From positions 1 through 54,806 of the IMG/VR virus record IMGVR_UViG_3300020205_001884: DNA of 54,806 bases; one strand, 5' to 3'. Made by a program: the position numbers and the translations under genes. Positions 52,390 through 53,898 of the stretch are shown here, piece by piece. The notes beneath the pieces are model-generated. The model was not told where the DNA came from and did no database searches. It saw nothing but the letters and a program-made list of their open reading frames with translations. Numbering within the stretch: position 1 is the first letter of the stretch; each line of letters begins with the position of its first letter. Source of the stretch: a virus. Its lineage: Duplodnaviria; Caudoviricetes.

Positions 52390-53001
52390 TCAGTCTAGGG
52401 TGGGAGTTCCACCTTGTATTCTCATCTTAAATTTAGAACCAATGCCACTCTTTTCCACTTGATCGGGGGCAAATGTTCTGATGTCATTGTGCGAATCTGC
52501 TCCAGCTGGAATGTATCCAATTGGTGAAGCAGATCGATTGCCTTTGGAATATGGCATTACAGCAATCATTCCGTGTTCGCCAGGTATCATGGATGCTATC
52601 CTAGTCGTCTTCATCTTCTTACCACTTTTACCACTACCACTTACAAGATAATGTCCATCTGTATGAGGAACAATATAATGTCTGTCTAGTTCGCCTTCTT
52701 GATCTGCACCAAATACTGGTTCCTTTTGGAGATAGACTGCAACACCTCTACCACCTTGAAGATGTGTGTTTATATGTCCATGAAGCTTTTTAGAAGACTC
52801 ACTTCTTGCTGCGCCTGTTACGCTACCAGCAATATCCTTGTTGGTCAACTTAACAGGATGTAACAGATCTATATCTTTTGCAAATGTTCCATCAGGCTTT
52901 TTGGCAGCGGTGTAAGCCGCTGGAACCGAACGCTTTGCTTCTTCTAATTTTTGAGCAATGAGTTGGGTTACTTGTCTGAGTGTAAAGAAATTGATTGCCA
53001 T
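52390..53001 (-). CDS. Hypothetical basic protein under a late promoter
   Basis: 203-aa ORF with an AGGAG Shine-Dalgarno and a CTAAATA box at 53030-53036; no recognisable family. Confidence 0.7.
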   Translation of the reverse strand: MAINFFTLRQVTQLIAQKLEEAKRSVPAAYTAAKKPDGTFAKDIDLLHPVKLTNKDIAGSVTGAARSESSKKLHGHINTHLQGGRGVAVYLQKEPVFGADQEGELDRHYIVPHTDGHYLVSGSGKSGKKMKTTRIASMIPGEHGMIAVMPYSKGNRSASPIGYIPAGADSHNDIRTFAPDQVEKSGIGSKFKMRIQGGTPTLD

Positions 53002-53061
53002 ATGCCAGTTCTCCTGTGAATTATATTACTATTTAGCACGAATAGAACTTCTATTGGCATA

Positions 53062-53093
53062 TATAAAGAACCGGACTCTTTGCAGAGCCCGGC
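53062..53093 (-). terminator. Intrinsic terminator of the anti-23S sRNA
   Basis: Minus strand GCCGGGCUCU-GCAA-AGAGUCCGGU-UCUUUAU: a 10-bp stem with 2 G.U pairs that form only on this strand, a GNRA loop and a U-rich tail. Confidence 0.8.
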
Positions 53094-53201
53094 CCCCCTG
53101 ACGGTCTAAAGGTAGCGAAGTTCCTATAACGCATGAATAGCGTAATCAAGTTCGCAACTGTCTCCGAATCCTGACTCCCGGTATTCAATCCCTCAAACCA
53201 C
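53063..53201 (-). ncRNA. Putative structured small RNA complementary to 23S rRNA H69-H71 (domain IV)
   Basis: Plus-strand blocks TGACGGTCTAAAGGTAGCGAAGTTCCT / GCATGAATAGCGTAAT / CTGTCTCC / GACTC are collinear with 23S ~1917-1943 / 1964-1979 / 1990-1997 / 2004-2008 (recalled E. coli sequence). The promoter and terminator define the opposite strand as the transcript. Confidence 0.75.
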
Positions 53202-53204
53202 ATG

Positions 53205-53212
53205 TATTTATA
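53205..53212 (-). promoter_or_regulatory. Perfect T4 late promoter TATAAATA driving the sRNA
   Basis: Plus-strand tatttata at 53205-53212; no annotated ORF lies between it and the terminator. Confidence 0.75.
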
Positions 53213-53219
53213 AAGGCAA

Positions 53220-53285
53220 TCATCTAGATCTTGCTGAAATTCTTTTAGCTCTGCGTAGATTTTCCTTATCCGCAGAATTAATCAT
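53220..53285 (-). CDS. Putative 21-aa basic peptide MINSADKENLRRAKRISARSR
   Basis: GGAG Shine-Dalgarno just upstream of the ATG (ttGGAGatattATG); lies directly downstream of a sigma70 promoter. Confidence 0.5.
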   Translation of the reverse strand: MINSADKENLRRAKRISARSR

Positions 53286-53295
53286 AATATCTCCA

Positions 53296-53326
53296 AATAA
53301 AAAGAGAACGAGGTTAGTCGTTCTCT
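53296..53326 (-). terminator. Intrinsic terminator for the 145-aa gene transcript, abutting the -10 box of a sigma70 promoter
   Basis: Minus strand AGAGAACGA-CTAACC-TCGTTCTCT-TTTTATTT. Confidence 0.75.
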
Positions 53327-53354
53327 ATTATACTGGTATTCTTATGTAAGTCAA
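53327..53354 (-). promoter_or_regulatory. sigma70-type promoter TTGACT-16 bp-TATAAT
   Basis: Minus strand TTGACTTACATAAGAATACCAGTATAAT; same architecture as the gp32 promoter. Confidence 0.7.
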
Positions 53355-53357
53355 GGT

Positions 53358-53407
53358 GGTCTTAATAGGTCTTGAAGGGCCTTAGTAGGACTACACAGGT
53401 ATGTAGA
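53358..53407. repeat. Five degenerate 10-bp direct repeats
   Basis: ggtcttaata/ggtcttgaag/ggccttagta/ggactacaca/ggtatgtaga, with GG recurring exactly every 10 bp. Confidence 0.5.
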
Positions 53408-53426
53408 ATTTTAAAGAAGTGGCCTC

Positions 53427-53864
53427 TTATGGAGTTTTTCTTAAGAGATCTGCTTTTTCTTTTCTCATTGCGGCCAATTGTTTAGCTGCGGCTCGTTCGT
53501 TGGATGCTGCTTTTATTTTTGCACATTCAGCCTTTGCTTCTTTCAATTGATCTGCTACAGCGGCTTCGTCGGGTTTACCTTTTCTTCTCAGTAATTCCTT
53601 TTCCAAAGAAGTAACTCTGGCAGAACATTGTATAACTGCATTATCTAACATTTCTGCGCCTTGTTTTCGTTTCTCGACTGCTTCCGTTCCACCTTGAATA
53701 ATAGCACCAACACCAGATCCGCCAATTACTTTGCCGGCACTGCTTAGCAGACCTTTACCTATTGTGCCCAATGCACCTTTCATAAATGTGCCAACTTCTT
53801 CGTCAACAGATTGATCACAATTGCAGTCTTCATTTGAATTAATGTATTGGGAGAATTTCTTCAT
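53427..53864 (-). CDS. Hypothetical protein; candidate head internal (injected) protein
   Basis: N-terminus 'MKKFSQYI...VDEE' resembles the T4 capsid-targeting leader; a perfect TATAAATA lies 8 nt upstream (53873-53880). Confidence 0.6.
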   Translation of the reverse strand: MKKFSQYINSNEDCNCDQSVDEEVGTFMKGALGTIGKGLLSSAGKVIGGSGVGAIIQGGTEAVEKRKQGAEMLDNAVIQCSARVTSLEKELLRRKGKPDEAAVADQLKEAKAECAKIKAASNERAAAKQLAAMRKEKADLLRKTP

Positions 53865-53872
53865 AGTGCCAG

Positions 53873-53898
53873 TATTTATAACAAAAGATTACTACATA
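53873..53898. promoter_or_regulatory. Divergent late promoters TATAAATA (-, 53873-53880) and CTACATA (+, 53892-53898)
   Basis: Late-box motifs placed just upstream of the two divergent ORFs. Confidence 0.6.

Follow-up and report, generated by a model that had tools for sequence, protein, structure and literature searches.

The locus studied here raises the question of whether a phage can encode a small RNA (sRNA) directed against bacterial 23S ribosomal RNA (rRNA). It lies in a stretch of virus DNA of 54,806 nucleotides (nt), referred to below as the window, which covers positions 1 to 54,806 of the IMG/VR record IMGVR_UViG_3300020205_001884 (Duplodnaviria; Caudoviricetes). A sequence-only reading had noticed that an intergenic stretch of the window resembles helices H69 to H71 of 23S rRNA on its plus strand, and had proposed that the minus strand is transcribed into a late RNA complementary to them. 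In our best reading, 53063-53201 on the minus strand probably encodes a small RNA, stable, structured and about 137 nt long, that belongs to a family carried by uncultured T4-like phages.

The similarity to 23S rRNA is real and specific. We used the rrlH gene of E. coli K-12 as the reference for 23S numbering, and the helix names H69 to H71 are those which we take to apply to the E. coli segments. The four collinear blocks that had been aligned by eye on the plus strand were reproduced against rrlH with exactly the same identity counts: 53099-53125 matches 1917-1943 at 23 of 27 positions, 53131-53146 matches 1964-1979 at 14 of 16, and 53158-53165 and 53173-53177 match 1990-1997 (8/8) and 2004-2008 (5/5) throughout. 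The letters ATAA stand in place of the H71 stretch. When the window element was run by blastn against genomes of E. coli, no match appeared, the exact words being too short, and the comparison was made by local alignment. When 53040-53230 was aligned locally to the whole 23S, the plus strand fell on 1919-1997 with a score of 39, and the minus strand reached 19, elsewhere in the molecule; under a second scoring scheme the window scored 42, versus at most 26 in 30 shuffles. The Rfam large-subunit (LSU) rRNA model RF02541 gave no match at E≤10 in 52950-53450, none in the whole record, where one candidate was scored and then rejected, and none at E≤1 in 13 loci of the family described below. The element does not qualify as a 23S gene or pseudogene, as only about nt 1913-2015 is represented, H71 is replaced by 3-8 nt and the LSU model finds no match.

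A perfect late promoter at 53205-53212, TATAAATA, and an intrinsic terminator had both been read along the minus strand, and both were confirmed, the terminator as a hairpin at 53071-53092 followed by a T-run. This T-run is interrupted; a simple scanner missed the terminator and a dedicated scan listed it. The hairpin works on the minus strand only, where it contains a G·U pair that becomes A·C on the plus strand, and a close relative (L003; L numbers denote the loci collected by the searches below) has A-U at the same pair. The promoter motif is under-represented in the window, with three copies (33239, 53205 and 53873) against 9.8 expected by chance, and all three are on the gene strand, which fits promoter use. 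The copy at 53873-53880 stands immediately before the start of gene 53864-53427. T4 late transcription starts a few bases downstream of the promoter motif. All genes neighbouring the element are on the minus strand, as are its promoter and terminator, and both signals are of bacterial type. From these motifs we infer late-promoter transcription and intrinsic termination of the sRNA. A coding reading, an open reading frame of 50 amino acids (aa) at 53051-53203, was rejected: its ATG lies 1 nt past the promoter, the frame crosses the terminator, and it is broken in relatives, the 50 codons being interrupted by indels of 1 and 11 nt relative to the L006-type copies.

Further members were collected with four degenerate (IUPAC) patterns, which bias the apparent conservation. 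The first pattern consisted of two conserved words separated by a gap too short to hold H71, and identified 13 viral contigs, 39 metagenome contigs and, in a set of 185,579 species genomes of prokaryotes, one contig; of these, three metagenome contigs and the single species-genome contig turned out to be true 23S genes with a masked or collapsed stretch, and were excluded. True 23S genes excluded from the metagenome and genome collections, L052, L054 and L057, read NN at the H71 position. The second pattern, anchored on the side of the H69 loop, yielded 14 further family loci, together with one coding false positive (L068) that was discarded, and the third, anchored on the opposite side, re-found only 10 known loci. 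The analysed set comprised 64 loci with 52 distinct sequences.

Across these 64 loci, in varied gene contexts, we found a promoter-body-terminator module antisense to one 23S segment, with H71 omitted. The body measures 80-140 nt. The late-promoter motif (T/C)TAAATA occurs at the equivalent place in 40 of the 52 distinct sequences, and an intrinsic terminator of -13 to -28 kcal/mol follows on the antisense strand in 51, the exception being cut by the contig end. Among the 12 sequences without the promoter motif, three are truncated (L019, L035, L044), two carry TATAGATA (L013, L033), and the other seven are L025, L027, L040, L059, L060, L065 and L072. A second terminator-like hairpin lies directly before the body in L059, L060, L065, L072 and the L028/L036 group. 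The plus strands of 25 representatives were all best aligned to E. coli 23S 1913-2015, with scores of 35-77 versus no more than 31 in shuffles. The free-standing minus-strand RNA gene that had been proposed from a single locus is therefore upheld as a module recurring in 64 varied contexts, its transcript being a prediction. Taken together, these loci very probably represent a real transcribed sRNA gene family, new and widespread, that is antisense to 23S H69-H70, and the family appears to descend from an inverted piece of 23S ribosomal DNA (rDNA; about nt 1913-2015) that lost the H71 hairpin.

The family falls into eight structural subtypes, all displaying one common seed segment. In subtype B the likeness to 23S reaches about nt 2015. 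Subtype H (L025 2099-2138 and L027 4494-4533), found on G+C-rich contigs, is identical to E. coli 23S 1920-1942 plus 1953-1978 at 47 of 49 positions, lacks only the 5′ half of H71 and places a 6-base-pair stem, GUUCGG/CCGAAC, around the seed; it may represent an independent or more recent rDNA capture. At L059 (5723-5746) and L064 (909-932) only the part complementary to 1913-1944 is kept, without a partner for the closing helix P1 described below and without a late promoter on the RNA strand, and TATAAATA on the other strand faces a downstream gene. The linker that replaces H71 varies from 3 to 8 nt across the family, except in L060 and L065, where an unrelated hairpin takes its place. Five whole phage records, including one complete genome of 147 kb, each have the element as their top match to 23S, in a single copy, and blastn of the L012-type copy matched annotated 23S rRNA records at 27 of 30 positions. 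No other piece of 23S, 16S or 5S was identified in the 489 kb of loci or in the five whole records. A 19/20 match to 23S 2322-2341 in one record (G002) lies inside an open reading frame and was taken as chance.

We predicted the fold of the RNA from alignments of the individual subtypes, because RNAalifold found no consensus when 27 RNAs were aligned globally with MAFFT. For the A-type copies, RNAalifold returned two helices, P1 and P2, a small GCG/CGC stem around a 13-nt loop, and the terminator. P1 joins the 5′ end to the segment complementary to 1921-1930, and P2 joins a second 5′ segment to the block complementary to 1964-1979. The A-type helices contain at least seven G·U columns and several A-U to G·U switches, which would read A·C on the other strand; in P2, too, there are A-U to G·U switches tolerated on the minus strand only, and the C/F and D/E alignments gave the same G·U picture. 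In the D/E types, a 5-base-pair stem with C-G to A-U covariation closes the 10-nt loop AAYUUCGCUA. A formal count was made for the seven pairs of P1 in 23 distinct sequences from all subtypes, with 500 shuffles. We found that 85.1% of the P1 cells were paired versus 77.5 ± 1.8 in the shuffles, and that the covariation score was 0.339 versus 0.196, neither value being reached in any of the 500 shuffles; registers slid along the alignment paired only 17-57% of the cells. Both sides had changed at four of the pairs, one of which appears as U-A, G-C and C-G, and the 5′ end covaries with the counterpart of 23S position 1925 (the pair is U-A in the window, G-C in L006 and A-U in L013). Since P1 begins 2-5 nt past the promoter, it would leave the RNA with a base-paired 5′ end. 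The family RNAs can be described as having a three-helix, tRNA-sized architecture, and a fold of P1 and P2 with a single-stranded invariant segment is predicted, partly backed by covariation. The promoter, the terminator, the orientation of the neighbouring genes and transfer RNA (tRNA) genes, and the G·U pairs together indicate that the antisense strand is the transcribed one.

Table 1. Coordinates of the predicted sRNA gene and its parts, followed by the genes on either side
Feature	Position	Strand	Basis or remark
T4-type late promoter of the sRNA, TATAAATA	53205..53212	minus	motif; one of three window copies
Predicted sRNA, about 137 nt	53063..53201	minus	ends inferred from promoter, helix P1 and terminator
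5′ strand of closing helix P1, GUGGUUUGAGGG	53190..53201	minus	RNAalifold on 8 A-type sequences and pair count
5′ strand of helix P2, UGAAUACCGGGAGUCAGG, pairing with the anti-1964-1979 block	53171..53187	minus	RNAalifold
GGAGACAG, complement of 23S 1990-1997	53158..53165	minus	8/8
Block complementary to 23S 1963-1979, 3′ strand of P2	53130..53146	minus	14/16; mostly paired in predictions
4-nt linker where 23S has the H71 hairpin (about 1944-1962)	53126..53129	minus	local alignment
Invariant segment GGAACUUCGCUACCU, complement of 23S 1928-1942, candidate seed	53110..53124	minus	in all 64 loci
3′ strand of P1, CCUUUAGACCGU, complementary to 23S 1919-1930 except at 1925/1926 (mismatched)	53101..53112	minus	
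Intrinsic terminator: 9-base-pair stem 53071-53092, GCAA loop, then T-run	53062..53092	minus	-21.6 kcal/mol
Downstream gene, 203 aa, no family match	52390..53001	minus	context, outside the RNA
Remnant of a dksA/traR-type zinc-finger gene, last 21 codons	53220..53285	minus	context, upstream of the promoter

The segment that this fold leaves exposed, GGAAYUUCGCUACCU, is the complement of 23S 1928-1942 and ends exactly at C1942. Its presence in all 64 loci is partly forced by the search patterns. Where it was unforced, the seed is intact in 10 of 10 loci (third pattern) and RTTCC in 15 of 16, with L061 reading ACTCC; (G)AGACAGUG is conserved in most subtypes though absent from the first search pattern. 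Partition-function folding of 39 distinct RNAs gave AAYUUCGCUA a mean unpaired probability of 0.73 versus 0.34 for the rest, and the value was higher in 38 of the 39 RNAs. In its A1938 form, the target word is exact in 39 of 61 sampled genomes, and E. coli laboratory strains carry the identical 15-nt target. Cofolding with naked E. coli 23S 1905-2000 gained -30 to -47 kcal/mol over separate folds for all eight representatives, versus a mean gain of -8 to -9 kcal/mol, and -18.5 at best, for shuffled sRNAs, and the best duplex of the sRNA on the whole 23S is this same site. No second copy of the loop complement was found in the window or the five whole phage records, the element itself apart, so a phage mRNA target is not apparent. 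These results support a conserved, predicted-exposed seed of 10-15 nt accompanied by a longer complementarity that is decaying, and they modify the sequence-only reading. Its simple antisense RNA keeps the complementarity and becomes a structured RNA, most of whose antisense arm would be sequestered in P1 and P2; in the homologues, about 15 nt (anti-1928-1942) are invariant and exposed, and the flanks are eroding and mostly not wobble-compatible; and the pairing with 23S, strongly favoured in silico with the naked rRNA, is a prediction for the cell.

The target segment coincides with reported cleavage points. In free subunits or in defective particles, 23S decay starts with a single RNase E cut after nt 1942, according to one report (PMC4931109), and the toxins MazF-mt6 and MazF-mt3 cut UU^CCU in the single-stranded helix/loop 70 in 50S and not in 70S, according to another (PMC5408214). 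We propose, at slightly less than even chances, that pairing with 23S is how the sRNA acts, with H69-H70 of nascent or free 50S as the site. The exposed segment would nucleate pairing with nt 1928-1942 in the helix/loop-70 region, a target that is single-stranded and nuclease-accessible in 50S outside 70S. On unfolded or nascent rRNA the duplex would zip into the flanks, because the G·U-rich internal helices are weaker than the heteroduplex, and H71 would be left out as a hairpin. The broader proposal, that an RNA acting in trans and derived from inverted rDNA controls the making, joining or survival of host large subunits, likewise falls just short of an even bet.

Three outcomes of such pairing were considered. 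In the favoured one, the RNA would be a trap for newly made or loose 50S, in which H69, H70 and the 3′ strands of H64 and H61 could not fold; no new functional 50S would be made, and engaged 70S, with the site buried, would go on translating phage mRNA. It is favoured because full-length invasion needs unfolded rRNA and because a small RNA outnumbers nascent rRNA more easily than mature ribosomes; even so, we consider the trap rather unlikely as a specific outcome. In the alternatives, the RNA would mask, or guide, the cuts of RNase E (after nt 1942) and of MazF-type toxins (UU^CCU); as a shield of this sensitive site it is unlikely, and as a guide for a nuclease there it is quite unlikely. 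The ancestral complementarity has a length that better suits the trap, and the late-type promoters and the neighbourhood of tRNA and transfer-messenger RNA (tmRNA) genes fit a ribosome-preserving role better. The shield has a precedent, since antisense RNA duplexes mask single-stranded RNase E sites when marine cyanophages infect (PMC3113571) and phage induces host RNase E (PMC9692554).

Several observations weigh against pairing with 23S as the function, or against parts of the reading built around it. The seed invariance is partly an artefact of how members were collected. A narrower test of P1, with six pairs and without the marine subtypes, showed no covariation above shuffles, and the RNAduplex energy of P1, -13.5 versus -10.6 kcal/mol with a shuffled 5′ end, is a small gain; the P1 duplex is better on the minus than on the plus strand in 21 of 34 sequences. 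The unpaired probabilities of the P1 3′ strand (0.18) and the anti-1964-1979 block (0.29) indicate that the antisense arm is mostly sequestered. In about half of the members Y is C, which places C opposite A1938, and none of 301 genomes sampled from one bacterial phylum, which may not contain the phages' hosts, showed the G1938 form of the target. The positions at which the family as a whole departs from 23S (1918, 1925/26 and 1967) form mismatches rather than wobbles, and 1925/26 and 1928 covary with the internal helix partner, not with the target. The anti-1964-1979 block resembles 23S at 6-8 of 8 core bases in members where it was unforced, and is missing in L059 and L064. In the mature 50S, most of 1913-1998 is base-paired or buried, so invasion is plausible only for nascent, unfolded or free particles. 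If the host has ceased transcription by the time that a late promoter is active, such a promoter argues against a block of ribosome synthesis. An anti-16S element, for instance near nt 919, which we take to be the other RNase E entry site, was not found in the 489 kb of loci or the five whole records. Finally, blastn against 50,697 phage records gave no match for the window element or the L043 type.

Much of this evidence bears on a reading in which the product is a stable, structured RNA of the phage and its invariant loop serves as the binding site of a phage or host protein, or pairs with an RNA other than 23S, the rRNA likeness being a trace of origin from captured rDNA. The drift of the flanks, which track internal helices rather than the target, the C·A mismatch at 1938 in about half of the members and the three-helix, tRNA-sized architecture within tRNA clusters all suit it. 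It must also account for an invariant 15 nt that is exactly complementary to 23S save for Y and faces a universal target (39/61 genomes exact), for a rRNA likeness kept to about nt 2015 in subtype B, for the lack of a neighbouring protein conserved across subtypes and for a complement without a second copy in the phage records. We regard this reading as a minor possibility.

The genomic surroundings bear on a second alternative. The element often lies in or beside large phage tRNA/tmRNA clusters, on the same strand as the flanking genes and tRNA genes, and this placement among translation-related RNA genes counts for a ribosome-directed role. In the C/F types, a tRNA-Lys gene follows 65-170 nt downstream (L009, L012, L030, L032), and the element of L062 adjoins a phage tmRNA gene (1696-2033; 113.9 bits, Rfam). 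Other tmRNA genes near family members were seen at L072 6560-6893 and at L011 8766-9170, the latter a permuted tmRNA by ARAGORN only, and ARAGORN also reported a tRNA with a four-base anticodon (cagg) at L072 3215-3300, within the phage tRNA cluster. Promoter, structured RNA, terminator and co-oriented genes are the classic layout of a cis-acting leader, and with tRNA-Lys so close in the C/F types an attenuator or riboswitch-like element controlling the downstream tRNA cluster, the 203-aa gene or others was weighed. However, the downstream genes are not constant between subtypes: the 203-aa family comes after the element in only 11 loci, its place being taken elsewhere by tRNAs, by a membrane protein of 55 aa or by a protein with a signal peptide, and no protein family is a constant neighbour across subtypes. 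Also against a leader, the terminators are strong (-13 to -28 kcal/mol), and no antiterminator is apparent, the terminator 5′ half being unpaired at 0.53 versus 0.40 for the body in a coarse test on truncated RNAs. A leader is therefore very unlikely. A family of proteins of about 246 aa with a signal-peptide-like N-terminus occurs near the element in 17 loci at variable distances, about 180 nt after the seed in L026, L033, L046, L050 and L053, and elsewhere near it in L023, L024, L030, L045, L056, L059, L064, L066, L069 and L071.

A third alternative reverses the functional strand. The plus strand would be an rRNA mimic, a minimal H69-3′/H70 without H71, serving as decoy or substrate for a MazF-type toxin, RNase E, a methyltransferase or a pseudouridine synthase. 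The A/G variation at 1938 would be neutral in an H70-like plus-strand helix (A-U to G·U), the plus-sense folds are equally or more stable in the B and G types, and phage tRNAs reportedly act as decoys against tRNA-cutting defence. However, the plus strand has neither promoter nor terminator, both signals being opposite in nearly all members; the neighbouring genes and tRNAs all run in the opposite direction; dozens of G·U pairs turn into A·C on it; and neither the Rfam LSU model nor any other Rfam family matches. The element thereby differs from rRNA-mimic leaders and sense decoys, such as r-protein leaders and the 23S-methyl motif, in which the transcribed strand is the rRNA-like one. We consider both the mimic itself and this choice of recognisers highly improbable. 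The weakest alternative is a DNA-level relic or site without RNA function, such as captured rDNA in the form of mobile-intron exon flanks or a homing-endonuclease site; the best-kept stretch (about 1913-1942) does overlap 23S 1911-1936, which we take to be a known homing site, but 64 loci in varied contexts keep promoter, terminator and compensatory helices, no endonuclease or intron adjoins the element in the neighbourhoods examined, and the pattern is absent from the 185,579 prokaryote species genomes save for one true 23S gene, all of which makes a relic most improbable.

The virus itself is a T4-like phage, represented by a 54.8-kb fragment estimated to be 25% complete. The window encodes a gp6-type baseplate wedge protein (phrog_219, E 2e-151), a gp5-type hub and a gp32 homologue (phrog_224), the nearest relatives of which are those of T4-like cyanophages, at 53-56% aa identity. 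A tRNA-Tyr gene, the sole Rfam match at the gathering threshold in the whole window, lies 1.5 kb from the element. The zinc-finger gene that survives as a remnant before the promoter is intact (70 aa, PF01258, 26.6 bits) directly before the sRNA promoter in L006, L007, L011, L015, L017, L022 and L031; in L006 it occupies 330-542 on the plus strand, and in the window its upstream part has been swapped for other sequence. TraR requires an N-terminal DxxDxA motif (PMC9239242); no such motif was apparent by eye in the 70-aa protein, which starts directly at the zinc finger. This adjacent gene is limited to the L006 group and carries no weight as evidence for the function of the sRNA. Further upstream, the terminator of gene 53427-53864 lies at 53326-53303 on the minus strand and is directly abutted by a sigma-70-like promoter match at 53354-53327 on the same strand (TTGACT, a 16-nt spacer and TATAAT; 11/12).

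The earlier statement that no described phage sRNA family is antisense to 23S agrees with both the literature and the Rfam comparison, and no known RNA family fits. At E≤10, Rfam gave on 52950-53450 only a junk match to RAGATH-6 (17.7 bits against a cut-off of 170 bits), and at E≤1 on 13 family loci it gave only tRNAs, one tmRNA and tRNA look-alikes. The L012 type matched, in the 50,697 phage records, only 23S rRNA contaminant records and one weak chance entry, and among the phage records searched no cultured phage appears to carry the element. No description of a phage RNA antisense to rRNA was found in the open-access literature searched. Even if the pairing with rRNA is wrong, the loci would make up a widespread family of structured RNAs, undescribed so far, in uncultured T4-like phages.

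Phages are known to affect translation through proteins, tRNAs or mRNA-targeting sRNAs. If the pairing proposal is right, a phage would act on the ribosome by another route, RNA-RNA recognition, and bacteria and their viruses would have their first natural example of a trans-antisense rRNA regulator. As the presumed target, 1928-1942, is identical across bacteria, one RNA would serve any host, and such activity in any host would explain its retention by very different T4-like phages. The proposal would make three ideas testable: that small RNAs invade late intermediates of 50S assembly, that the RNase E entry site at nt 1942 is a regulated point of ribosome turnover during infection, and that more RNAs directed at the ribosome are to be found in phage tRNA/tmRNA clusters. 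A further gain would be an antisense design, natural and tested by evolution, for a conserved antibacterial target.

Several known systems invite comparison. T4 rnaC and rnaD are likewise small stable RNA genes among the tRNA genes of T4-type phages, with function unknown; kinship was rejected, as neither resembles the window RNA or either 23S strand (best local scores 14-19, noise level). Synthetic antisense peptide nucleic acids (PNA) and oligomers against 23S H69 are reviewed and reportedly bind there to interfere with translation; they are man-made, short and unstructured, and silent on natural occurrence. Chloroplast AS5 is a natural RNA antisense to rRNA (5S), with a reported effect on its stability (PMC3017836); AS5 is cis-encoded, organellar and fully complementary, whereas the phage RNA is virus-encoded, would act in trans through partial complementarity and has domain IV of 23S as its presumed target. 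The antisense RNAs of cyanophage infection share with a shielding phage RNA the duplex that hides an RNase E site, and the window gp32 is nearest to T4-like cyanophages; those antisense RNAs are kilobase-long, cis-antisense transcripts of the host that protect mRNAs (PMC3113571), whereas the phage RNA is short, would act in trans and would cover a 23S site (PMC4931109).

The element resembles a trans-acting antisense sRNA or, in the trap model, a pre-rRNA binder of the U3/U8 type, and is a member of neither class. U3/U8-type small nucleolar RNAs (snoRNAs) pair with conserved pre-rRNA and keep helices from forming, as the phage RNA would in the trap model. They are eukaryotic ribonucleoproteins that carry box motifs, have dedicated proteins and are required for assembly, whereas the phage RNA is viral, its presumed effect would be inhibitory or protective, and no boxes or partner proteins were noted; fibrillarin/Nop5 and Cbf5 did not turn up among the neighbours, and no search aimed at guide-RNA boxes was made. 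With the trans-encoded base-pairing sRNAs known from bacteria and phages, the element shares its own promoter and intrinsic terminator, a structured body of about 100 nt, and an exposed, conserved seed with imperfect complementarity to a target made elsewhere. It is a short non-coding unit with both signals of its own, and its conserved seed is predicted to be accessible. Trans-encoded sRNAs target mRNA, whereas the presumed target of the phage RNA is rRNA, and the phage RNA itself appears to derive from antisense rDNA.

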